Below, one piece after another: positions 158 through 50,927 of a stretch of 64,000 nt of DNA. The notes under the pieces were generated by a model. The model did no database searches. It was not told the origin of the DNA and saw only the letters and a program-made list of their open reading frames with translations. This stretch comes from an uncultured Gammaproteobacteria bacterium. GTDB taxonomy: Bacteria; Patescibacteriota; Patescibacteriia; Patescibacteriales; UBA12465. The number at the start of each line of letters is the position of its first letter. The first letter of the stretch is position 1. A program made the position numbers and the translations under genes. The stretch spans positions 65,454 through 129,453 of the forward strand of contig CAZMYU010000001.1 in NCBI GenBank assembly GCA_964570655.1. The letters are read 5' to 3'.

Positions 158-727
158 TTATTTCCTCAGACTAATCTCGTAAGCCATTTGTTCAATTTTG
201 CGCAAATTGGTGCGCGCCTGATCATATTTGGTGCGCATATAACCGGTGAGATCAAACTCTACTAAATATCCCAAAATTTCATTAATAAGTTCTTGGACAG
301 TAAAAACAGTTTTAAAATTTTTCTTAGCGGCTTCATTGGTAGCATAACGCAAGAGCTCGCCAGTAAAATCACAAAGTCCTCCTAGGTAGGCTCCATGCGG
401 TAAATCTAGGCCTTTGAAAAAATCTATTTTTTCTTTTTGCAAATAAGCCGACAAAAGTCGAGCCTCCGCATATTCTTCTAGAGCGGCAATATAGGAACCC
501 TCTTTTTCCAAGCGCTTCACCCCAAAACGTTTATTTAAATCTTTGAGTTTGGCCTCTAATTCTTTGAACTTGGCTGAGATAGATGACAAGTCGCCCCGAT
601 GCAAAGAAAAAATTATTCGCTTCGAATCGTACAAAATATTATTAGCAGCTGCACCAATTTGCCGTCGCTCCCCCTCACCCTGACTATAATCCTTCTTGAG
701 TTTCGCAAAAAATTTCTTGTTAATCAT
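158..727 (-). CDS. Translin-family (COG2178-like) protein
   Basis: Track ORF 158-772. ATG at 727 (MINKKFF..) avoids overlap with the upstream stop at 747. Helical protein with the YLGGLCDFTGELLRYA motif, which resembles the translin GEL.R signature. Confidence 0.55.
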   Translation of the reverse strand: MINKKFFAKLKKDYSQGEGERRQIGAAANNILYDSKRIIFSLHRGDLSSISAKFKELEAKLKDLNKRFGVKRLEKEGSYIAALEEYAEARLLSAYLQKEKIDFFKGLDLPHGAYLGGLCDFTGELLRYATNEAAKKNFKTVFTVQELINEILGYLVEFDLTGYMRTKYDQARTNLRKIEQMAYEISLRK

Positions 728-746
728 AAAAATTAATAATTTTATT

Positions 747-3700
747 TTAATCGCAGACTCTAAACACCTCACTAATAGTCGTTTCGCCCTTCAGAGCTTT
801 GAGGACTCCATCTTGGATCATCGTAACCATCCCGTTTTTGACCGCAATATCTTCAATCTCGGCATCAGTTAATTGGGCGTTTTGAATAGCCTTGCGGACT
901 TCAATCACTGGATTAATAACCTCGTAGAGGCCCATCCGATCTTTGAAACCCAGATTATTACATTCACTGCAACCAGTTCCTCGATAAAATTTGAGCTCTT
1001 TAGGAATCTTAACTTGCTCGTTTTTGATACTCGCCAAAATTTCTTGAACTCGCTTCAAGTCAGCCTCAGAGATCTTTTCTTCGGCTCGACAATTTGGACA
1101 AATCCGCCGGGCTAATCTTTGGCCCACTGATGATTCGATTGAATTAGCTAGTAGCGCCCGATCAACTCCTAGTCCAAAAAATCTAGAAATCGCGCTCGAA
1201 GCACTATTAGCATGAATAGTCGACAAAACTAGGTGGCCAGTGAGGGCGGCTTCAATCGCAATCTTAGCTGTTTCTTCATCTCGAATTTCACCAATCATCA
1301 TGACGTTTGGATTTTGGCGCAGAAGCGACCTGAGGGCCAAAGCAAAGGTATATCCCTGGGAAGCATTAATCTGGGTCTGCATCACTCCTTTGACCTGATA
1401 CTCAATTGGATCTTCAACAGTAATAATCTTAACCTCTGGTTTGTTCAAAACTTTTAGCAAACTATACAAAGTAGTGGTTTTGCCCGATCCCGTTGGACCG
1501 GTGACCAAAATAAGTCCTTTGGTTTTTTTAATCGCTTCTTGCAGAGCCAGCAATGAATAATCTTCGATCCCCAAATCAGACATTTTCAAGGCATTGGCTT
1601 CATCGGCTAGCAAACGGATCACGATAGTTTCACCATAACCGCCAGAGATAATAGAAACACGACAATCAATTTTGTTCTTGTCCATAAAGACCGAAAATCT
1701 CCCGTCCATGGCCGCTTGTTTGACGTTGGTTTCAAAACCAGAAAGTATTTTGACTTCGCCCAAAACCGGCAAATAATGATCAGGGCTCACCGAAAACATA
1801 TCATACAAAATACCATCAATCCTAAAACGCACCTTGACCTCCAGCTCCGAAGGATCAATATGAATATCGCCAGCTCGACTAGAAATAGCCAGAGCAAAAA
1901 TAGTTTTTAGTAGTTCCGGAGCACTAGCCGCTTTAATAATTTTGGCAATCTCCTCAGGCTTGCCCATTAGCGCCTTAGAGGCGCTCAAATCAGCTTTGCT
2001 CAGTTTTACTCCTCGACCCATTACCTTCGAAACCACCAGATCATACAAAGCATCCACATAATCAAAATCGCCGGCCACTCGATAAACTTCTTCCAAGGAA
2101 GTAATGCCTTCCACCGCCTTCAAAACTCCATCTTGCAACATAGTGATCATGCCATTTTCAATGGCTTGACGCAAAATTTCAAAGGCCGGAGCACTATCAA
2201 TGGTTAATTTCTTTATTTTATCATCCATGGTAAAAACTTCATAAATTCCCAAACGCCCTTTGTAACCAGTGCCATTGCAATCATCACAACCACTACCAGC
2301 ACTATAGAAAGCTGGCAAAGTCGCGGGCACCTCTACTCCAGATTTGGGTGAGATAACCGCCAGGATACGATTAACTCGATCGCGGTCTTCTTCGCTCAAT
2401 TCTTTTTCAACCTTACAATGCGGACATAATTTGCGCACCAGTCTTTGACCAAGCACCGCATTGATAGCTGGCACCAAAAAATAAGGCTTGACTCCCATAT
2501 CAATCAAGCGTGGAATTACTCCAGCGGCATCATTGGTATGTAAAGTAGACAGAACTAAATGACCGGTAAGCGAAGATTGGATGGCAATCTCAGCTGTTTC
2601 TAAATCACGAATTTCACCGACCATAATCACATTAGGATCTTGACGCAAAATCGAGCGCAGGCCCTCAGCAAAGGTATAGCCTTTATCAGTTTGAATTTGA
2701 CTCTGACTAATTCCCTTCAATTGATATTCGATTGGATCTTCTAAAGTAATAATCTTGGTGCCTGGTTTATTCAAACGTTTGAGTACGGCATACAAAGTAG
2801 TAGTTTTACCCGAACCAGTCGGACCAGTAGTGAGAATCAGACCATTGGGTCTATCAAGCTCTCTAATTAAAATAGCCAGTGGCCCAGGGCGCAGGCCCAA
2901 ATCATCAAAAGGTAGCCCCGCCGTTTTCGAGCGAAGTAAGCGCATTACCACACTCTCACCAAAAGCGGTTGGTAAAAACGAAGTTCTAACATCAATCTTT
3001 TCGCTTTTGAGAAAAATAGAAAAACGGCCATCCTGAGGCTGGTCATTAACATTAATTTTAACGCCGGCCAAAATTTTTAAACGAGAAACAATTTTGCGCC
3101 ATTGATTTTTGTTGATGGTAGCCGCCTCTTGCAAGACACCGTCGATTCTCAGCCGCACCACTACCGCCGCCGCTTCAGCCTCGATATGAATATCGGAAGC
3201 ATCAGTTTTTAGAGCGGTGGCCAAAATCAGAGTAATGATATCAGAAATATTGACGTTATTGATTTGATCACGCAATTTACGATAATCAGCAATAGACTGA
3301 GAAAATTTCTCCAAGTCTTCTTCCTTGATCTCAACTCCACCTTCATATTTGATAATTTTTGGTAAAATTTTGTATTCTTCTAAAGCGGAATTAAAACTAT
3401 TTTCCGATATCAAATACCAACGACTCTTGGTAAAATGCTTGGCATCTAAATCAACCACCAATTTTTTAAGAGCCGTGCTTGGTTCCTTGGTGGTACCAAT
3501 TCGAATATTCTCACCATCATAATAAAAACAAACGGCGTGCATCTCTCTGGCGTCATTTTCAGAAATCAAAGACAGAGCCTCTGGGCTAATCGGAAAAGAA
3601 AAAAGATTGATGTAATCAAAACCCAAAACGCCGGCCTGCACTTCGGTTTCCTCCTCTATTTGTTTGAGACGCAATTCATCTTCTTTGGCCAACAAAAGAC

Positions 3701-3773: not shown

Positions 3774-4847
3774 TTATTTCTTGGCAGTCGACCACCGCAC
3801 GTCTTTGTTTCTCAGACGAGGAAGAAGGCGCTCCAATTTGCTCATACCTCCTGGGCCAATCAAACGTAAAAATAATCCTGTCCAAGCACTAATTTGAAAA
3901 ACGGTAATCAGTGATCCGGCCAAAACCACAAAGAGAGCCAAAACTATTATGCCAATTATGAAGACTCCCCAAAAAGCCGCAAACGAAAATAATTGGAAAA
4001 AAGAAGTCGCTAAAATAATAAAAGGAATGGCCAAAACAGCACAAGCAATAAAAACAGCAATGGTGGCCAAGAAACTAATCACAAACAAAATAATCGCCAT
4101 CTCCAAACTAATCAACCAATTCTTTTTAAACAATGAAAAACCAGACCGCAAGGCCGAACCAAAATCTTCTTTTTTGAGGGTCACATAAGCCAAGGCATAT
4201 TTAATAAGCAAGGAAAAAGAAATAGCCGTTGGAATGAGAATTATAAACAAAATCAAATAAATCCCCAAACTCAGAGCCTGACTACCAAAAATGAAAATGA
4301 TCGGCAAGCCAACAATTAGCACTAGCAAACTAACCACAGCCTTGCTAATAATATTGAGACCCAAGGAAGTCCAAAAATAAGGCTGAGAACTTTTCAAGCT
4401 AGAGCGCCAATTGAGATTGTCTTCCTGGCCCTTGATCACCTTGTCAGTATCAGCAATTAGAGTAATCTGAGAAGAAACCGCTAGCCACAACAAGAAGAAA
4501 CCAATAATCATAGTGCCCAAAAAGATGAGCAGTACCGCCAGACCAGTTAGGGCATTATATTTGAACAATTGATAAAAACCAGTAAAAAATCCTCCGCCCA
4601 AAACACCTTGGACCCAGATTTGATCAAAGCTTAGCAACCACTTTAATAATTTTTCCCGACTAGTGGCGGAACTCAGAATTTGGTATTCAGCCCCCAAACT
4701 GAGAATTGAAGCAAAAATACCAAAAAACCATAGGTACTTTTTTTGCCAGGTAATTTTCCAAGCCTGACCCAAAATTTGTCGATAAAAAAACATAAATTTT
4801 ATAGTTTCTTCGCTGGCTCCAAGTCTCAAAAAAGCGTCTTTTGACAA
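3774..4847 (-). CDS. Polytopic membrane protein, function unknown
   Basis: 357-aa ORF with about 8 hydrophobic helices. The track start is TTG at 4847; the first ATG is at 4793. The stop lies 3 nt upstream of the pilB start. Confidence 0.6.
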   Translation of the reverse strand: MSKDAFLRLGASEETIKFMFFYRQILGQAWKITWQKKYLWFFGIFASILSLGAEYQILSSATSREKLLKWLLSFDQIWVQGVLGGGFFTGFYQLFKYNALTGLAVLLIFLGTMIIGFFLLWLAVSSQITLIADTDKVIKGQEDNLNWRSSLKSSQPYFWTSLGLNIISKAVVSLLVLIVGLPIIFIFGSQALSLGIYLILFIILIPTAISFSLLIKYALAYVTLKKEDFGSALRSGFSLFKKNWLISLEMAIILFVISFLATIAVFIACAVLAIPFIILATSFFQLFSFAAFWGVFIIGIIVLALFVVLAGSLITVFQISAWTGLFLRLIGPGGMSKLERLLPRLRNKDVRWSTAKK

Positions 4848-4942
4848 GCTCCTAGGACTTGGGGTCTAACGATGATTTAAGGTTGAAAAAAAGGTATTCA
4901 TTTGCTACTATTATATCATAATTAAAACCTTAGAACAAATAT

Positions 4943-6163
4943 ATGGCCAAGATTATCAAAGATAAACAGGCAATTTCCGAACTTTTAGAGCGGGGGGTAG
5001 AAAAAATCTTTCCCAATGCCGGTCTTTTAGAAAAAAAACTAATGAGTGGTGAACGTCTCAAAATTTATTGTGGCTACGACCCCACGGCTTCCGCCCTGCA
5101 TATTGGCAATGCTATTACTCTCAACAAATTAGCGCAATTCCAAAAACTAGGCCATCAAATTATTTTTTTGATTGGTGATTTTACTTGCATGATTGGCGAC
5201 CCGACCGACAAAAAAGCGACGCGAAAACAAATGACCCGCTCAGAGGTTTTGCATAATGCCAAAGATTACCAAAGACAAGCCAGTGCTTATCTGCAATTTT
5301 CCGGCAGCAACCCGGCCAAGATAATGTACAATAGCAAATGGAATGACAAATTAAAATTTAAAGATTTGATATCCCTAGCTTCCAATTTTACTGTCCAACA
5401 AATGATCCAGCGCGATATGTTTCAAGAACGCCTCAAAGAAGAACGGCCGATTTATCTGCATGAATTTATGTATCCGCTCACCCAAGCTCATGACAGCGTC
5501 GCCATGGATGTTGATGTTGAAATCGGTGGGAACGACCAAATGTTTAATATGCTGTGTGGTCGAGATCTACTCAAGGCTCTCAAAAACAAAGAGAAATGTG
5601 TTTTGACTCTTAAATTGCTCACCGACAACGAAGGCAAAAAAATGGGCAAATCTGAGGGCAATATTGTTTTCTTAAATGAATCACCCGAGGAAATGTATGG
5701 CAAAATAATGTCCTGGCCAGACGGTACTTTGACTAATGGCTTTGAACTATGCACTTTTTTGCCTTTAGACGAGTGCCAAAGACTTCAAACCGAAGCCAAA
5801 AATAATCCTCGCAATATCAAAATGCGTTTGGCTTTTGAAATCACTAGTCTCAATCATGGTAGCCAAAAAGCTTTGTCCGCCCAAGAATATTTTATTAAAA
5901 CCGTCCAAAACAAAGAAATCCCCAGCGATATGACGACCTACAAAATGAAAGATAGCGATCGTAGTTTTTTTGATATCTTGCTAAATAGCCAATTAGTTAA
6001 AAGCAAAGGCGAGGCGCGCCGACTCATGGAGCAGCATGGCCTCAAAATAAAAATTGATGATAATGAAATAGCCTCTCTAAAGGATGGTGACCTCACCCCC
6101 AATTTTTCGACAGAAATTATCATCCAAAGAGGCAAACATCAATTCTTGAGAATTATTAAATAA
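4943..6163 (+). CDS. tyrS: Tyrosyl-tRNA synthetase
   Basis: Class I motifs: HIGN (..PTASALHIGN) and KMGKS. C-terminal S4-like domain (KSKGEARRLMEQHGLKI). Confidence 0.93.
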   Translation: MAKIIKDKQAISELLERGVEKIFPNAGLLEKKLMSGERLKIYCGYDPTASALHIGNAITLNKLAQFQKLGHQIIFLIGDFTCMIGDPTDKKATRKQMTRSEVLHNAKDYQRQASAYLQFSGSNPAKIMYNSKWNDKLKFKDLISLASNFTVQQMIQRDMFQERLKEERPIYLHEFMYPLTQAHDSVAMDVDVEIGGNDQMFNMLCGRDLLKALKNKEKCVLTLKLLTDNEGKKMGKSEGNIVFLNESPEEMYGKIMSWPDGTLTNGFELCTFLPLDECQRLQTEAKNNPRNIKMRLAFEITSLNHGSQKALSAQEYFIKTVQNKEIPSDMTTYKMKDSDRSFFDILLNSQLVKSKGEARRLMEQHGLKIKIDDNEIASLKDGDLTPNFSTEIIIQRGKHQFLRIIK

Positions 6164-13744: not shown

Positions 13745-13887
13745 TTTATTTAGTGCTTGCACTGCTACCATACCCTTCTTCGCCAAAGGCTACGAAGGGC
13801 ACTACTTCGCTTCTCTAAGCGTAGTGATGTTATTCTAATTGAGTGCGTGCACTACGTAGCTCAACGCGTTAGCGTTGAGCGAAGTAG
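13745..13887 (-). repeat. GC-rich multi-hairpin 3' trailer of tRNA-Lys (copy 1 of trailer repeat)
   Basis: 13773-13825 is 53/53 identical to 14135-14187. 13842-13890 is 47/49 identical to 14203-14251. Hairpins include CTCAACGC/GCGTTGAG and GCCCTTC../..GAAGGGC. Confidence 0.85.
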
Positions 13888-13960
13888 TGCGTCCAGGAGG
13901 ATTCGAACCTCCGACCATCTCCTTAAGAGGGAGCAGCTCTACCAGCTGAGCTATGGACGC
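13888..13960 (-). tRNA. tRNA-Lys (anticodon CTT)
   Basis: Cloverleaf GCGTCCA..GCTCC-CTCTTAA-GGAGA..GGAGG-TTCGAAT-CCTCC-TGGACGC-A. No encoded CCA. Confidence 0.9.
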
Positions 13961-13982
13961 TTAATTATTTTGGAACACATAG

Positions 13983-14056
13983 TAGCTGGGGAGGGACTTG
14001 AACCCTCGACCTCGACGTTATGAGTGTCGCGCTCTAACCACCTGAGCTACCCAGCC
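13983..14056 (-). tRNA. tRNA with CAT anticodon (elongator Met or Ile2/lysidine; undecided)
   Basis: GGCTGGG..CGACA-CTCATAA-CGTCG..GAGGG-TTCAAGT-CCCTC-CCCAGCT-A. It lacks the initiator features (no C1xA72, no GGG/CCC anticodon stem). Confidence 0.85.
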
Positions 14057-14248
14057 TCAATTATAATATTTTTATATAGTGCTTGCACTTCGTAGCTCAA
14101 CGCGCTAGCGTTGAGCGAAAACAACTAACTTCTGCCCTTCTTCGCCAAAGGCTACGAAGGGCACTACTTCGCTTCTCTAAGCGTAGTTACACTATTTTAA
14201 TTAGTGCGTGCACTTCGTAGCTCAACGCGCTAGCGTTGAGCGAAGTAG
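14057..14248 (-). repeat. GC-rich multi-hairpin spacer / 3' trailer of tRNA-Arg (copy 2 of trailer repeat, with an extra hairpin)
   Basis: Same unit as 13745-13887, plus an additional CTCAACGCGCTAGCGTTGAG hairpin (14086-14118). Confidence 0.85.
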
Positions 14249-14322
14249 TGCACCCAGCAGGATTTGAACCCACAACCTCTTGGTCCGAAGCCAAGCGCTC
14301 TATCCAGTTGAGCTATGAGTGC
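14249..14322 (-). tRNA. tRNA-Arg (anticodon TCG)
   Basis: GCACTCA..CTTGG-CTTCGGA-CCAAG..GTGGG-TTCAAAT-CCTGC-TGGGTGC-A. No encoded CCA. Confidence 0.9.
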
Positions 14323-14323
14323 T

Positions 14324-14380
14324 CATCTTAAATCTGATTATTTAACACCTCATTTAAATTAAATAATCAGATTTAAGATG
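14324..14380. other. 21-bp perfect AT-rich hairpin between hup and tRNA-Arg
   Basis: CATCTTAAATCTGATTATTTA (14324-14344) pairs with TAAATAATCAGATTTAAGATG (14360-14380). There is no U-tract, so it is a terminator/processing candidate only. Confidence 0.5.
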
Positions 14381-14413
14381 AATTAAAAATTAATAATTAA
14401 TAATTAAAAATTT

Positions 14414-14701
14414 TTAATTGCTAGATTTTAATTCATCTTTTAATCTTTTGCCAGTTTTGAATTTGGCCACTTTAACCGCCGGAATCTTGATTCGTTCTTT
14501 GGGATTTCGAGGATTAACTCCGCCTCGCGCATAGCGAAGCATTGATGAAAAAGTACCAAAGCTAGCAATAGTTACCTCTTCACCTTTTTTCAATTTAGCA
14601 ATAATCGTCTCCACCAAAACTCCCAAAACTTTCTCGGCCTGACGACGACTTAAGCCTTCTACTTTTTTAGTTAATTCCTCAATTAACCCAAGCTTGTTCA
14701 T
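14414..14701 (-). CDS. hup: HU-family DNA-binding protein
   Basis: MNKLGLIEELTKK..FGTFSS..ARGGVNPRNPKERIKIPAVKVAKFKTGKRLKD. Confidence 0.9.
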   Translation of the reverse strand: MNKLGLIEELTKKVEGLSRRQAEKVLGVLVETIIAKLKKGEEVTIASFGTFSSMLRYARGGVNPRNPKERIKIPAVKVAKFKTGKRLKDELKSSN

Positions 14702-18286: not shown

Positions 18287-20872
18287 CTAAGGACAATTAC
18301 CATCTGGAGTTAGCAAGGTCGAAGCTTGACCATTACAACAAGATGGATTCTCTTCACTGGCCACACAACCTGGCCCACTAGAAGGTTTAAAACAATTCTG
18401 ATAAATATCTTTGATACCCGATCCAGCCTGAGCCGAATAATTAATAGCTTCATCAAATAGAGAATGATTAATAGTGGCTCTAGTCATATCATAACGACCA
18501 TCAACTGGCGACAAATCAATATTTTGACTAGTAATCCAATAACCCACCGGCTGATTAGTTTTGTTGAACAAATTAATCATTTTATGATCAACAGTACTAG
18601 TACCACTAGGCGTTTTGATGCTCCCAGTTCTGAGAGTACTTTGCATCATCATTTTATTAAAATCAATAATAATTGGATTGCTGAGATCAACATTGCCCAA
18701 TCCGGGAGCCGGCACAATATTAGTAATCTGCGGAGCGCTAGCTTCTAATCTGTCGGTTACAAAAAATGAAAAACGATACGAATCTTTAAAATTAGGATTG
18801 CGAACATTTTCGTCATAAAAACTAAGTGGTCCATCACTACTTTCATCTCGATTACCATTCAAAGAGTTGAAAGCTGCATCGACTATTCCAGCCGTCAGGG
18901 GTTTAAGGGCCAAGGGATAATTTTTGTTAGCCGAATTTTGGCAGACCTTGCTAGCCCCGCAAGAATTATAAGGAGCAAAAGCCGAACAATCGCCACTGCT
19001 CGTACAAGGATTAAGAGCGGCCGCGACCAACTCAACTTGCAAATGAGCACTGGGCGGCAAACAATAAATTTTTTCACCACAACCATTCATGCCACATTCC
19101 GTAGTGCTTTGAAATTCTAAAGTTCGATAATTATTAGAAATTAGCCAACGCCCAGCTACTGGAGCATTATTGTCAGCTAAGTTTATAACTCGAATAGTGT
19201 TTTTCACCTCATCCGAACTACCGGACACGGTCATCGGATTAATAGGTTCGCTAAAATTGATTTGAATAATCGAATTCATGGGCTTGTCTTGTTTGTCGCC
19301 CACCGTAACACTAATTTTTTCGTCCTGTCCGCCAGCCATACCGGAGACCGCAATATTGTTAGAATTATTGGTTGCCAAAACCAAGTTGTTTCCAGCTTCT
19401 CCACTAGCCTTGAAACGGATAATAGCCTTACTAGACTTGCTAGAAGCTTCAATATCATCCCGACCACTTAGAACCGAGGCAATATTATCAGCCTGATCAT
19501 TCAAATTAGTGGCCCGCAAAATTTCATAAGCCCCAGCCGCACTAGCCACAAAAGTATAGACCGATTGACCAATACTAATATTGTCAGCTCTAATTTCTGG
19601 ATTGACTTCAATCGACCAAGAATTACCAGCGGTGGGCGTGAAACCATCAAACTTAACTAGAAAATAACCAGGAAAATTAACTTCACCATTATTAATATTG
19701 AAAATACCCAGTGAGCTATCTGAAAATAATTGAGCTCGATTACCACTCAAAATAGTCACCTTAAAAGATTCGGTCGATCCATGGTAATCTCTATCCATCG
19801 TTACTTTCAAAGAATTTGGCCAACCCTGACTGCTGGGGGGATTATTGGCGACTGATTTCAAAGTAGCTGCCTGAAAAGTTTGCGGTAAAGACAAAACCGT
19901 AAATGATCCCATGGCTGATTTAGCTGACTGTAAACTCTCGGTTTTATCAGCCTGATTATCAGGTTCTGGGAAAATTCCCGCGCTCAAAACCTGAGGTGGG
20001 GTCAAATCTATTTTGTTATCAATCGCAAATTCCCAAGCCAAATAATCAGAACTACAAGTGCTAAACATAGAACTATTATCAGCTTTTTTTATTTCGCTAG
20101 TTAAACGCACCGTAAACCACACCCCATCACTAGTGACCGGAAAATACCCAGGCAGAGATATAATCAAAGTCTTGTTGTCTTTTTGATTAACCAAAGCATC
20201 TTTAATATTAGTAGCCTCTTTATCGCCAATAGTTGACTCATAAATCTTGACACTAGCCGGATTAATTTTTTGACAATTACTGGTATTATCACAAGCACAG
20301 GCTGTGCCACTATCATTGACACAAATAGTATCCAATTTCAATTCTTCTTTGAAAGTAATCAGGATGGCGGTATTTTTGGCAATGCCTTTTTGACCAGGCT
20401 CAGGATAAACCGAATCAACCGAGCAAGATCCCAGGGCTCCTAGCCCTAAGCCCGGATTGATATTTTTGCCACCACTGCCATTATCAATATCGCCACCATT
20501 ACCAGAGGCCCTCATCAAACGATTCAAAATAAAAAAGGTAATCCCCCAGGCTGACAAAATAATTAATAGACCAATGATTCCATTGCGCAAAACTTTTTTG
20601 GCTTCAGTGATTTTTTCTTCATTGCCATTTGAGGTCATCCATTTAAACCCAGCAATCAAAATAAAAATTACCGCAATCGCCCCCAAAAACATCATGGCAA
20701 TATTTACAATTCTAGACACAATTCTCAGGGGATTATCACTACTAAGTTGGATAACGTTATTTATTTCATTAAGCCCCACATCTTGAGCCAAAGCAATTTT
20801 GCCAAACAAAAATAAGCCCACGGCTAACAAAGGGAAAAACATGGCTTTAATTAAGCGCTGATTTCTAAACAT
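18287..20872 (-). CDS. Large secreted/surface protein with pilin-like (VirB2/TrbC-type topology) N-terminal module
   Basis: 861 aa. Signal peptide (..GKIALAQD), two hydrophobic helices flanking WMTSNGNEEKITEAKK, a Gly-rich linker, a long S/T/N-rich beta-type region, and a Cys-rich C-terminus (..CCNGQASTLLTPDGNCP). Confidence 0.8.
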   Translation of the reverse strand: MFRNQRLIKAMFFPLLAVGLFLFGKIALAQDVGLNEINNVIQLSSDNPLRIVSRIVNIAMMFLGAIAVIFILIAGFKWMTSNGNEEKITEAKKVLRNGIIGLLIILSAWGITFFILNRLMRASGNGGDIDNGSGGKNINPGLGLGALGSCSVDSVYPEPGQKGIAKNTAILITFKEELKLDTICVNDSGTACACDNTSNCQKINPASVKIYESTIGDKEATNIKDALVNQKDNKTLIISLPGYFPVTSDGVWFTVRLTSEIKKADNSSMFSTCSSDYLAWEFAIDNKIDLTPPQVLSAGIFPEPDNQADKTESLQSAKSAMGSFTVLSLPQTFQAATLKSVANNPPSSQGWPNSLKVTMDRDYHGSTESFKVTILSGNRAQLFSDSSLGIFNINNGEVNFPGYFLVKFDGFTPTAGNSWSIEVNPEIRADNISIGQSVYTFVASAAGAYEILRATNLNDQADNIASVLSGRDDIEASSKSSKAIIRFKASGEAGNNLVLATNNSNNIAVSGMAGGQDEKISVTVGDKQDKPMNSIIQINFSEPINPMTVSGSSDEVKNTIRVINLADNNAPVAGRWLISNNYRTLEFQSTTECGMNGCGEKIYCLPPSAHLQVELVAAALNPCTSSGDCSAFAPYNSCGASKVCQNSANKNYPLALKPLTAGIVDAAFNSLNGNRDESSDGPLSFYDENVRNPNFKDSYRFSFFVTDRLEASAPQITNIVPAPGLGNVDLSNPIIIDFNKMMMQSTLRTGSIKTPSGTSTVDHKMINLFNKTNQPVGYWITSQNIDLSPVDGRYDMTRATINHSLFDEAINYSAQAGSGIKDIYQNCFKPSSGPGCVASEENPSCCNGQASTLLTPDGNCP

Positions 20873-20931: not shown

Positions 20932-20959
20932 AAGTCCTGGGGTCTGACCCCATATTTGA

Positions 20960-21487
20960 TCAATCTAAAATAAATTTTTTAAATCCTTTTAAATCGCCAA
21001 ACATCTCTTTAATTTTTTCCTTTTTAACACAACCGGTATCTGATACATTTTGAATAATTTCCGAGTAACTACTCCAAGGCCATTTTTCCGGAGAATCAAC
21101 TAATCCACTTCTAACCGGATTAAGGGCGACATACTTTATAAGGGTAAGCAAATATGATTCCCTAGTAATAACCCTGGATTTATATCTCCCTTGAAAAAGA
21201 TGGCCAACCCTCTTATGTAAAAAATTAAATTTTTGAGCATAAAACGCATTTAAATCTTTCATGCCGACGGCCAAATTTGCCAAAGGAGTTTTAACCACCA
21301 AGTGATAATGATTGGGCATCAGACAATAGGCAAAGGAGACCCACTGACATTCCTTGATAGCCTCAGATAAAAATTTTAAAAACAGCTCATAATCAGCATT
21401 AGAGGTAAATATTTTTCTTTTATTATTTCCTCTAGATAAAACATGGTAAAGCGCGTCTTCATATTGAAGCCTTAAAAGTCTACTCAT
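20960..21487 (-). CDS. REP-associated tyrosine transposase (RAYT; IS200/IS605-type Y1 HUH transposase)
   Basis: 175 aa. HUH motif in CLMPNHYHLVV, catalytic-Tyr region YVALNPVRSGLV, and HLFQGRYKS. Confidence 0.85.
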   Translation of the reverse strand: MSRLLRLQYEDALYHVLSRGNNKRKIFTSNADYELFLKFLSEAIKECQWVSFAYCLMPNHYHLVVKTPLANLAVGMKDLNAFYAQKFNFLHKRVGHLFQGRYKSRVITRESYLLTLIKYVALNPVRSGLVDSPEKWPWSSYSEIIQNVSDTGCVKKEKIKEMFGDLKGFKKFILD

Positions 21488-21619
21488 AGTTTTAATTTTA
21501 GAATTTCAAAAAACACGCCCCTAAATAACTTAGAGAGGCGTGCTAAATTGAAAACTAATTATTTTATTATTTGATCAGATTTTAAATCCTATCTTTAAAA
21601 AAATCAAGTGGGGTCAAGT

Positions 21620-21695
21620 GGGGTCAGACCCCAGGGGAATTTTATTAAAAAATAAGGTGTTTTCATGTGGCCACCAAAAAATGGGGTCAGACCCC
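21620..21695. repeat. REP doublet (2 x GGGGTCAGACCCC separated by 50 nt), copy A
   Basis: 68/76 identical to 41868-41943. Preceded by the 10-nt tandem duplication agtggggtca x2 (21607-21626). Confidence 0.9.
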
Positions 21696-21699
21696 AGGG

Positions 21700-21900
21700 T
21701 TAAAAAAGACAAGTTAAGAAGGGGCGCTGATCAATTTGGCGGCAATCTTTAAAATTCCGGCTCCATTCTTGGATGTTCTCAAAAACCCTAAAAGTTTGCG
21801 GGTTCAAGCTGGTTTTGATATCCCGATTGTAAAACCAAAACAAAGACAAAAACATAAGCACTAAAAATAAAACGACTGTTAGAAATTGACGAAGATTCAT
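21700..21900 (-). CDS. Small membrane protein (66 aa), hypothetical
   Basis: ATGA start/stop overlap with the upstream PHP gene suggests translational coupling. One N-terminal TM helix. Confidence 0.45.
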   Translation of the reverse strand: MNLRQFLTVVLFLVLMFLSLFWFYNRDIKTSLNPQTFRVFENIQEWSRNFKDCRQIDQRPFLTCLF

Positions 21901-23256: not shown

Positions 23257-24309
23257 TTACATCGTTTCAATGAGTTGAGCTTCGGCGACTTCCTTGCTAA
23301 TTAGCCCTTGATTATACAATTCTTTAATATGTCGTCCGAAGGAAAGCATCCCATCTTGGTAACTAGTGTCAATAACATTTTTGATTTGAGTGAGTTTCTG
23401 ATCCCGAATCAAGGTAGAAATAGCCGCGTTTCTGATCATCACCTCCCGCATCGCGATTCGCCCGCCACCAACCTTAGGAATTAATTTTTGCGAAATTACC
23501 GCGTTTAAAACATTAGCGAGTTGCGCTCGCACCTGACCCTGTTGATAAGGAGGAAAAACATCGATAATTCTATCAACAGTCTGGGCCGCATTAAAAGTAT
23601 GCAAAGTCGCTAGGACCAAATGACCGGTTTCGGCCAAAGTCAAGGCCGTCGAAATAGTTTCCAAGTCACGCATTTCCCCGACCATAATCACATTCGGATC
23701 TTGACGCAGGACATGCTTGAGCCCGCTGGCAAAAGTTTCCATATCCGAATCAAGTTGACGCTGAACAATTATTGATTTGCTGGAAGAAAAAATATACTCA
23801 ATCGGATCCTCTAGAGTAATAATATTATAACTAAAATTATCATTAAGATAATTAATCATCGCTGCCAGTGAAGTAGATTTACCACAACCAGTTGGTCCAG
23901 TCAGCAAAATCATGCCCTGACGAGCACCAAGTAATTTATAAATGACCTCAGGCATTCCAACATCTTCCAAACTGGGACGAAGCTCTCTGATAACCCGAGC
24001 TACAAAACTAATATTACCTCGCTCATAAAAAAGATTGATACGAAAACGATAATTATCAATTGAATAACCGAAATCCAAGTCTTTATTTTTATAAAATTTT
24101 TGCCGATGTTCAACATCTAGAAGAGTCTCAACGGCCTTGCTGAGTTCTTTGGAGCTAACAATTTCAAAATCATCATTAGTCCCTTTAAATAAGGTATCAA
24201 TTGGAAATAATTCCCCATCAATTCTAAAAAACGGCTTAAGCCCTTTCACCACATGCAAGTCCGAAGCATTATTTTGGGCGGCTAGAGTTAATAAGCGTTT
24301 AATGTCCAT
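23257..24309 (-). CDS. pilT: Type IV pilus retraction ATPase PilT
   Basis: 350 aa. GPTGCGKSTSLAAMI, VIMVGEMRDLETI, TGHLVLATLHT. It lacks a GspE_N domain. Confidence 0.9.
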   Translation of the reverse strand: MDIKRLLTLAAQNNASDLHVVKGLKPFFRIDGELFPIDTLFKGTNDDFEIVSSKELSKAVETLLDVEHRQKFYKNKDLDFGYSIDNYRFRINLFYERGNISFVARVIRELRPSLEDVGMPEVIYKLLGARQGMILLTGPTGCGKSTSLAAMINYLNDNFSYNIITLEDPIEYIFSSSKSIIVQRQLDSDMETFASGLKHVLRQDPNVIMVGEMRDLETISTALTLAETGHLVLATLHTFNAAQTVDRIIDVFPPYQQGQVRAQLANVLNAVISQKLIPKVGGGRIAMREVMIRNAAISTLIRDQKLTQIKNVIDTSYQDGMLSFGRHIKELYNQGLISKEVAEAQLIETM

Positions 24310-35334: not shown

Positions 35335-35415
35335 TTTCATCCCGTTACACGGGACGAATTAAAAATTAATAATTAATAATTAAAAATTTCTAATTTTTCA
35401 TTGTTAATTGTTAAT

Positions 35416-41759: not shown

Positions 41760-41867
41760 ACACACCCTCACTCTAAATTAATTATTTAAAAGGGCTAATT
41801 GTTATTATCAACAATTAGCCTATCTCTAATATAATACAATTCTTGGAATAGTTCAAGGGTGCTTTTT

Positions 41868-41943
41868 GGGGTCAGACCCCAGACAATTTTTATTAAAAAA
41901 TAAGGCGTTTTTATATGACCACCAAAAAATGGGGTCAGACCCC
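41868..41943. repeat. REP doublet, copy B
   Basis: GGGGTCAGACCCC at 41868-41880 and 41931-41943. 68/76 identical to 21620-21695. Confidence 0.9.
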
Positions 41944-42110: not shown

Positions 42111-42518
42111 ATGAAGACATTAAATGCAATCCACACAGTGTTAAAAATGGCAGTTATTATAACTATCACAGTTATTTTACACCTTGCAATTACCCAATTT
42201 ATCGGTCTGGCCAATTTCTACGCCTACGCCGGAATGATCCTCGTTATACCGATCATAATCCACCTCATCAACCGGGATAAAAATGCTTGGCATGCGCTTG
42301 TTTTACTGCTAACATCCCTTATTAATAGTACTTGGCTTTGTATCTTCTCCTGGAACAACCTGTATTCCTGGATATACCGGGAAGACTCCTGGCTGGACAG
42401 AAAGCCGATAAACGGTATGACGACTATCGCGGTACTAATTGCTCTTATCACCCTGATTGACATCGTTAAAAGGCTAAAACACCGCAATAAACAAAAGACC
42501 GAAGAAGCCAAAAACTAA
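42111..42518 (+). CDS. Small polytopic membrane protein (135 aa), hypothetical
   Basis: 4 predicted TM helices and a basic C-terminal tail. Preceded by a promoter and followed by a terminator. Confidence 0.6.
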   Translation: MKTLNAIHTVLKMAVIITITVILHLAITQFIGLANFYAYAGMILVIPIIIHLINRDKNAWHALVLLLTSLINSTWLCIFSWNNLYSWIYREDSWLDRKPINGMTTIAVLIALITLIDIVKRLKHRNKQKTEEAKN

Positions 42519-47445: not shown

Positions 47446-47481
47446 GGTGTCAGGCACCAAGCAGTAAAGGTGCCTGACACC
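47446..47481. repeat. Perfect 13-bp GC-rich hairpin GGTGTCAGGCACC / GGTGCCTGACACC
   Basis: Arms at 47446-47458 and 47469-47481, with a 10-nt loop, 12 nt upstream of the yebC start. Confidence 0.85.
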
Positions 47482-50851: not shown

Positions 50852-50927
50852 AGTAAAGTAATCTCAATTATTTTTAATTTCTAATTATTAATTTTTAATT
50901 TCCCAAACCACCTTGGGTTTGGGAGAC

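Follow-up and report, generated by a model that had tools for sequence, protein, structure and literature searches.

A probable REPtron/TIRtron-type unit in a Falkowbacteria-like Patescibacteria genome: a RAYT-like transposase gene and its hairpin repeat

Genomes of the candidate phyla radiation (CPR)/Patescibacteria are small, and few repeats and little mobile DNA are expected in them. What, then, is a transposase gene bracketed by GC-rich palindromes doing in such a genome, and do the gene and the palindromes belong together? The question is raised by a 64-kb stretch of contig CAZMYU010000001.1 (the whole stretch is called the window below), in which a gene for a Y1-type HUH transposase lies between inverted copies of a short hairpin repeat. 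Our analysis indicates that the locus is probably a compact unit of the REPtron/TIRtron type in a Falkowbacteria-like Patescibacteria genome, composed of a transposase that resembles the REP-associated tyrosine transposases (RAYTs; REP, repetitive extragenic palindrome) and has no helix-turn-helix (HTH) domain, and of its cognate hairpin T-GGGGTCWGACCCC-A. The closest described class is TIRYT/TIRtron-like, similar to Y1 subclass 2.1, rather than canonical GTAG-REP/RAYT. An earlier sequence-only reading of the window had proposed a RAYT/REP arrangement; of that proposal, a RAYT-type Y1 enzyme with its own hairpins stands, whereas the canonical class does not, the unit being TIRYT/TIRtron-like, below the RAYT profile cut-off and without GTAG. 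Coordinates are collected in Table 1.

The enzyme itself is readily recognized. The same reading had pointed out HUH and Tyr motifs in the open reading frame (ORF) 20960-21487(-), and the translation indeed contains LMPNHYHLVV and IKYVALNPVRSGL, YVALNPV included. In the 175-aa protein the HUH motif corresponds to H60-Y-H62, the catalytic tyrosine to Y119, and a WPWSS motif to residues 136-140. Y1_Tnp is the sole Pfam match (42.3 bits, cut-off 23). Among NCBIfam models the best match is REP_Tyr_transpos (NF047646; E 6.5e-21, 74.7 bits), and the IS200 model NF033573 gives no match at E<=1. The sole sequence match in the PDB is E. coli TnpAREP (4ER8). An AlphaFold model built from a 42-sequence family alignment has a pLDDT of 93.3 and is confident through the last helix; its top Foldseek match is again 4ER8_A (E 3.8e-9, TM score 0.70, 154 columns), with an identity of ~16% in the fold alignment, whereas the transposases of IS608, ISDra2 and IS200 reach TM scores of only 0.45-0.50. 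All 24 columns that are invariant among the 42 family members are kept, including H60, H62 and Y119, and W136, W138, S139 and S140 of the WPWSS motif, just past the catalytic-Tyr helix, fall in invariant or nearly invariant columns. Judged by profile scores and predicted fold, the protein groups with RAYT-like enzymes and not with IS200 TnpA, which settles the RAYT-versus-IS200 comparison that had been suggested as a check.

The comparison with the IS200/IS605 elements (IS608, ISDra2) extends to the locus. Both systems have the HUH/Y1 catalytic core, in both the enzyme presumably recognizes hairpins in single-stranded DNA, and direct reading of the window sequence reveals no evident target-site duplication around the bracketed unit or the doublets described below. 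In contrast to these elements, the window protein leaves the IS200 profile unmatched and has a weaker fold match (TM ~0.48), the two ends of the unit carry one palindrome, inverted, where these elements have different left-end and right-end hairpins, and the gene occurs as a single copy in the 64 kb, with no tnpB.

The hairpin repeat is equally well defined. Its core, GGGGTCWGACCCC, occurs exactly five times in the window, once with a central T (20939) and four times with a central A (21620, 21683, 41868 and 41931), as the sequence-only reading had listed. The number expected by chance is 0, and 100 dinucleotide-preserving shuffles contained none. No further copies appear in the window at one or two mismatches; matches at three mismatches were rejected as family members, falling in sequence that has no relation to the repeat, for example tmRNA or coding regions. 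The proposed bracketing of the gene by CCTGGGGTCTGACCCC (20936-20951) and its reverse complement GGGGTCAGACCCCAGG (21620-21635) holds at these coordinates and can be refined to an 18-nt inverted repeat, ATGGGGTCAGACCCCAGG, of which the copy at 20936-20953(-) matches 21681-21698(+), outward-reading from both gene ends; a third core, at 21620, lies beside this pair. The core is predicted to fold as T-GGGGT/ACCCC-A with a 3-nt loop. The 1-nt loop that a 6-bp stem within the 13-nt palindrome would require is not feasible, and of the six predicted pairs four are G-C. Since the window averages 39% GC, these hairpins stand out. All five cores lie outside ORFs taken as genes, at three extragenic sites, one of which is away from the transposase gene.

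The four cores on the plus strand pair up into two instances, 90% identical to each other, of a 77-nt unit in which an AT-rich spacer of 49 nt separates two cores. Similarity between the two doublets stops at the limits of this unit, and therefore they are not parts of a longer shared element. Rfam at gathering thresholds returned only tRNAs and tmRNA for the window, which means that the 77-nt unit corresponds to no known RNA family. Copy 1 begins 4 nt past the stop of a small ORF, 21700-21900(-), and its outer core is followed on the minus strand by ATTTTTT, in the manner of a terminator. Copy 2 sits in the divergent intergenic region between nusA (start 41677, -) and an ORF starting at 42111(+). 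At the other side of the gene, the 20936-20953 repeat lies just upstream of a TTGAAA-17-TATAAT promoter-like site of a pilin-like gene starting at 20872. The half copy of the core that had been attributed to a tandem AGTGGGGTCA x2 at 21607-21626 is confirmed; its whole extent, 21604-21626, is a repeat of period 10, which produces an orphan left half-core beside the first full core.

In these doublets the window resembles the REPIN-RAYT systems of Pseudomonas and Enterobacteria (Bertels & Rainey 2011; Bertels et al. 2017, PMC5581495): a two-hairpin doublet is the repeated unit, its two cores are predicted to pair together into a single long hairpin, and the transposase is present once, here in the 64 kb. 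The two systems differ in that the window cores are in direct, not inverted, orientation as judged by the central base, in that the copy number observed in the 64 kb is tiny compared with tens to hundreds, and in that the window shows no sign of long-term vertical persistence, the relatives' loci being empty.

A side effect of the core concerns annotation. Preceded by AT, it reads ATG-GGG-TCA-GAC-CCC (M-G-S-D-P), and it therefore seeds spurious ORFs or N-terminal extensions starting MGSDP in several genomes: window 21618-21752(+), and, among the contigs of our comparison set (labelled L), L175 624, L127 500-1135(-) and L112 6126(-). Such MGSDP starts are a marker of annotation artefacts.

Is the hairpin tied to the enzyme? 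A contig scan with TGGGGTCAGACCCCAG gave at least 120 loci, mostly from GC-rich genomes among the matches listed, which did not include the source genome of the window. We assembled a test set of 240 loci (1.58 Mb), retrieved solely because they contain the core, and searched it by tblastn with the window protein. Homologues of 27-44% identity were found in ten of the 240 loci, and in nine of these ten a core lies within ~120 nt of a gene end, often bracketing the gene (Table 1). The nine contigs come from Actinomycetes, Acidobacteriota, Halomonas, Marinobacter, Steroidobacteraceae and metagenome bins, some of them AT-rich. The arrangement had been taken as mainly proteobacterial, a view that does not hold for this core, which is widespread and flanks homologues in several phyla. 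All eight core-flanked homologues that were scanned score far higher with the RAYT model (60-99 bits) than with the IS200 model (<=31 bits). Y1 homologues are much sparser in ordinary genomic sequence than in core-containing loci, and for this reason the association is not due to chance. On this comparative sequence evidence, the best interpretation of the hairpin is a cognate site for the window enzyme's clade. Another homologue, L123 from Rheinheimera, was set aside as uninformative, being flanked by IS110 copies and not by the core.

The surroundings of the core were compared across loci. The cores in the window are preceded by AAAT, AAGT, TTTT and ATAT, and the GT[AG]G guide tetranucleotide of classical REPs is not found at the 5' foot of the window hairpins. 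Among 455 cores, position -1 is T in 84%, with an A-rich tract before it that is partly imposed by the AAAAAT pattern of the metagenome scan. About 35 of 463 cores have, within 30 nt, an orphan half-core of the same arm, some of which are in fact degenerate full copies. Short tandem arrays of orphan half-cores beside a full core are seen again in L082, L162/L179, L176, L197, L224, L055 and L023; hairpin-induced slippage and enzyme action are alternative candidate origins.

Other repeats were encountered during this survey. An extended palindrome, AAAAATGGGGTCWGACCCCATTTTT, is the common form in GC-rich metagenome contigs (L126-L245, median GC 0.63), often as doublets 20-70 nt apart; a 19-mer scan gave at least 120 loci against a handful expected by chance. 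In the Patescibacteria metagenome-assembled genome (MAG) STA_78 (JAQTOB01; L030 2016-5845, L082 5272-5314), the same core ends a different, 95-140-nt repeat that occurs five times within 6.6 kb, three copies being tandem, and a CTGGG(G)T x4 half-core array is present as well; the two STA_78 loci fetched contain no transposase homologue. An Actinobacteria MAG, L125, encodes a 252-aa homologue (P0026) flanked by another repeat, ATCTACCTCAAACCAT, present four times upstream at 31-33-nt spacing (2846-2956) and inverted downstream (3859-3911), a distinct repeat family that accompanies the same enzyme clade. A link to phages was rejected: the 17 single 16-mer matches in viral contigs are close to a rough chance expectation.

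To which genome do these elements belong, and since when? The best named matches of NusA (76-83% identity) and of the EndoQ-family gene adjoining the ORF (61-66%) are Candidatus Falkowbacteria/Patescibacteria proteins, so the earlier description of the host as CPR-like is correct. A JGI contig bearing the same ORF is identical to the window. We compared ~74 kb around the same genes in relatives, namely three nusA regions (16-21 kb each) and the EndoQ region of GCA_022710685.1. Neither the three nusA regions nor the EndoQ region contain a core, a half-core or a transposase homologue. The EndoQ region of GCA_022710685.1 runs from a small membrane ORF through a terminator and a promoter to the pilin-like gene, with a spacer of 89 nt, whereas the corresponding site in the window holds 827 nt: the doublet, the 21508-21542 hairpin, the transposase gene and the 3' core. 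Because they are absent from the same sites in the Falkowbacteria-like relatives, both repeat-bearing loci are, on this comparison of regions, lineage-specific insertions. The comparison of related genomes that had been proposed for individual repeat copies thus gave empty sites at both loci. Long-term vertical inheritance at a conserved locus, a trait of RAYT Groups 2/3, is not seen, the gene and repeats being absent from the syntenic EndoQ/pilin-like and nusA regions of relatives whose NusA is 76-83% identical. The transposase gene has a GC content of 33.5% and a third-position GC content (GC3) of 29.5%, against 39.2 +/- 2.5% and 36.2 +/- 3.3% for the long ORFs of the window; both values lie ~2 standard deviations under those of host ORFs, which favours another AT-rich genome as the source over a direct transfer from proteobacteria.

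These data bear directly on the simplest alternative, that the hairpins are ordinary host intrinsic terminators or an operator palindrome and lie near the transposase by coincidence. Intrinsic-terminator features (GC hairpin plus T-tract) are present at 21682-21696(-), 3' of the small ORF; this copy and that at 41931-41943 precede ATTTTTT on the minus strand, and AAAAATGGGGTCWGACCCCATTTTT, common in GC-rich metagenome contigs, resembles a bidirectional terminator. Yet an identical 13-mer five times where none is expected, the same core abutting homologous transposase genes in nine unrelated contigs, and relatives without hairpins at the same sites all speak against it, as does the nusA-upstream doublet, which lies in a divergent region and follows no gene end that it could terminate. 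We consider this explanation largely refuted and highly improbable.

A second alternative is an autonomous element resembling an insertion sequence, in which the ~0.76-kb segment 20936-21698 would move whole and the nusA-upstream doublet would be a miniature derivative of its two ends. The absence of the segment from the orthologous site of a relative, its 18-nt inverted ends and its GC content below that of host genes fit this explanation; so do the comparable core-gene-core unit, ~0.8 kb, of the AT-rich contig L197, homologues on 33 plasmids, and the long-form relatives L122 and L267, whose classical terminal inverted repeats overlap the 3' end of the gene. The explanation is nevertheless rather unlikely, given that the gene (one copy, no fragments) is found once in the 64 kb, that profile and predicted fold side with TnpAREP and not with IS200 TnpA, that a probable host terminator lies inside the bracket, and that such units are described as not moving whole (PMC6006769).

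That terminator is the 21508-21542 hairpin, which we read from the sequence, its loop being too long for the terminator scan. It lies between the upstream doublet and the transposase ORF and ends ~20 nt ahead of the ATG. The relative L249 has GGGGCGCTTTTTT at the equivalent place, and the hairpin is probably the host terminator of the EndoQ/small-ORF operon.

Several observations weigh against a functional unit of enzyme and hairpin. The earlier reading had described REPs dispersed elsewhere, and a further copy is present, but the statement rests on one extra locus in 64 kb; with five cores at three sites only, dispersal is putative, and transposition is proposed from analogy rather than from an observed event. 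Should the 21508-21542 hairpin come from the host, the doublet upstream and the gene were acquired separately and not as one unit, and the bracket may stem from two or more insertions. The stretch between this hairpin and the ATG contains no promoter-like site, and transposase expression may, to judge from the sequence, be very low on account of both features. Judged by its central base, the core is oriented the other way round relative to the gene in the GC-rich homologues L057, L112, L018 and L127, whereas the AT-rich L197 and L161 share the orientation of the window. Finally, the NF047646 score of 74.7 bits is below the curated RAYT equivalog cut-off of 80, and Pfam detects Y1_Tnp alone in the protein, with no C-terminal HTH. 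The closest relatives (<=54% identity) are mostly ~280 aa long, and these ~280-aa proteins bear a C-terminal HTH (PF13384/PF13518). In view of the sub-cut-off score and the absent domain, the 175-aa protein could be impaired. The fit of its size to the RAYT class, taken earlier as support, is a coincidence, the window protein being a short form.

These weaknesses lead to a third alternative, a decaying relic: a C-terminally truncated, inactive TIRYT of formerly ~280 aa, with hairpins that are fossils serving only host structure or termination. The protein has no HTH domain and the 64-kb window no remnant of the extension, the cores number only five, a terminator but no recognizable promoter lies directly upstream, and TIRYTs appear less productive than RAYTs (Di Nocera et al., PMC3733652). 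Against decay, the ORF is intact with every invariant family residue kept, the predicted model is confident to the last helix, and there are other natural short forms: P0019 (183 aa), which shares the C-terminal ...FGD..GF..F motif with the window protein, and L197 (200 aa). Decay must be slight, since all five cores are exact and the doublets 90% identical. We therefore regard a relic as quite improbable.

We thus return to the compact REPtron/TIRtron-type unit and to the described systems that it most resembles. RAYT-like genes flanked by terminal inverted repeats were named TIRYTs and their elements TIRtrons; many of the repeats share GGGGWSAS, and some are self-complementary, moderately abundant and arranged in dimers or clusters (Di Nocera et al. 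2013, PMC3733652). Most TIRYTs fall in Y1 subclass 2.1, which comprises long proteins with Bac_DnaA_C, HTH_23 or HTH_28 C-termini; no REP-like structures were found next to subclass 2.1 genes, and a conserved Ser motif past the catalytic-Tyr helix was described (Quentin et al. 2018, PMC6006769). TIRYT/TIRtron probably equals TnpA-Y1 subclass 2.1. The window matches this class in its RAYT-like Y1 gene between inverted repeats, in a core start, GGGGTCAG, that fits GGGGWSAS exactly, in a small repeat family that is partly dimeric, in a patchy distribution resembling horizontal transfer, in nearest relatives that are ~280-aa HTH-bearing proteins of the TIRYT class, and in the WPWSS serine motif. 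It differs in the missing C-terminal HTH (Bac_DnaA_C/HTH_23/HTH_28) that defines subclass 2.1, in its Patescibacteria host, and in a REP-like structure near the gene, here and in nine other contigs, where none was reported for the subclass (PMC6006769). Its repeat is a fully self-complementary 13-15-nt hairpin, in contrast to the ~20-nt non-palindromic repeats of the long-form relatives in Aliiglaciecola (L122) and on a Legionella plasmid (L267), which read GGGGTCAGG(T/C)CTTG... and have the 3' copy overlapping the gene end.

The REPtron of E. coli (TnpAREP, that is RayT/YafM, 4ER8, with REP/BIME) is comparable in other respects. It provides the best structural match (TM 0.70) and the sole PDB sequence match, and in both cases a single gene is bracketed by inverted cognate hairpins in 3' untranslated or intergenic positions. 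Differences are the ~16% identity of the proteins, the lack of a GTAG guide in the window, where the flanks are A-rich and then T, a much shorter stem, very few copies in the 64 kb, and the lack of vertical conservation among relatives.

Given these parallels, we propose the following mechanism. By analogy with TnpAREP and IS608 TnpA, the enzyme would bind the hairpin in single-stranded DNA, for example in the lagging-strand template, and would cleave and rejoin the DNA beside it through a 5'-phosphotyrosine intermediate. Hairpin-bearing units would thereby be copied to new extragenic sites, and the 77-nt doublet upstream of nusA would be a non-autonomous, REPIN-like passenger. Horizontal transfer from another AT-rich genome would have brought the gene and repeats into the lineage. 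After insertion, the hairpins could also act as weak terminators or mRNA 3' structures; a secondary role of this kind for the host, in terminating transcription or stabilizing mRNA 3' ends, is plausible because of their weak-terminator likeness on the minus strand and the AAAAATGGGGTCWGACCCCATTTTT form in GC-rich contigs.

A broader hypothesis, which we put forward tentatively as a possibility short of even odds, is that T-GGGGTCWGACCCC-A (13-15 nt, near-invariant) serves as a common recognition site for a large RAYT/TIRYT clade, subclass 2.1 among its members, and has travelled with the gene across phyla into CPR. The Y1 core alone would then read the hairpin, as the HTH-less proteins of the window and L197 would suggest, and the half-core arrays (window 21604-21626, L082, L162/L179, L176, L197, L224) would be traces left by cleavage or template switching in the middle of the hairpin.

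Table 1. Features of the repeat-bearing loci in the window and homologous transposase genes flanked by the core in other contigs
Feature or locus	Source	Position	Strand	Cores and details
3'-flanking repeat copy	window	20936..20953	(-)	ATGGGGTCAGACCCCAGG; core 20939-20951; 8 nt past transposase stop codon
RAYT/TIRYT-like Y1 HUH transposase gene	window	20960-21487	(-)	175 aa, intact ORF
Terminator-like hairpin	window	21508..21542	(-)	9-bp stem CACGCCTCT / AGGGGCGTG (one G-T pair), 11-nt loop, T6
Period-10 partial duplication	window	21604..21626	(+)	TCAAGTGGGG x2.3
77-nt doublet copy 1	window	21619..21695	(+)	cores 21620-21632 and 21683-21695; 49-nt AT-rich spacer
77-nt doublet copy 2	window	41867..41943	(+)	cores 41868-41880 and 41931-41943
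L057	Steroidobacteraceae	gene 4374-5009		cores 4370, 5093
L112	Acidobacteriota	gene 5518-6009 (tblastn match)		cores 4956, 6112
L077	Halomonas	gene flanked		core clusters both sides
L033	Marinobacter	gene flanked upstream		cores 1779, 1819
L018	Actinomycetes	gene flanked upstream		core 799
L127	metagenome, GC 0.63	gene 1161-1862		core 1121
L161	metagenome, GC 0.27	gene stop 1120		core 1131
L197	metagenome, GC 0.33	gene 253-855		cores 135, 935
L175	metagenome, GC 0.40	two gene copies		several cores

The window contains further repeats of other kinds. An AT-rich 35-57-nt element, AATTAAAAATTAATAATTAATAATTAAAAATT..., occurs at 14377-14433, 35353-35409 and 50866-50900, ~20-55 nt upstream of three tRNA genes, tRNA-Arg(-), tRNA-Gly(-) and tRNA-Ala(+), each time in the orientation of the tRNA, and probably serves these genes as a common promoter or upstream element. 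The tRNA-Lys/Met/Arg cluster at 13773-14277 carries 68-75-nt repeats (families D2 and D7) directly 3' of, and overlapping, the tRNA ends, with nested GC-rich hairpins such as GCTCAACGC-GTTA-GCGTTGAGC. A perfect 13-nt inverted repeat, GGTGTCAGGCACC / GGTGCCTGACACC, with arms 10 nt apart at 47446-47481, matches the core at three mismatches but is unrelated to the hairpin family; a terminator or an operator is its probable nature. Three genes share paralogous stretches (families D4 and D6), at 1198-1321, 2524-2647 and 23585-23708. One of these genes, 23257-24309, has a PilT/T2SSE-type ATPase orthologue in the relative L249, and the D4/D6 genes may form a small paralogous ATPase family by the pilin-like 861-aa gene.

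A literature search found no link of RAYT or REPIN with CPR terms, and the exact 13-mer was not found in the literature searched. The unit type itself is already known; particular to the window unit are the fully palindromic repeat, the missing HTH and the CPR host. The presence of the core beside these genes qualifies the published statement that subclass 2.1 Y1 proteins are without REP-like partners. An identical 13-nt core beside enzymes that are merely 27-44% identical, in several phyla, offers a simple and testable protein-DNA recognition pair. A transposase and a hairpin repeat in two lineage-specific insertions indicate that REP-type repeat spreaders can enter CPR genomes, and the main added value of the locus lies in this CPR host together with the evidence of one near-invariant hairpin partnering an enzyme clade across phyla.

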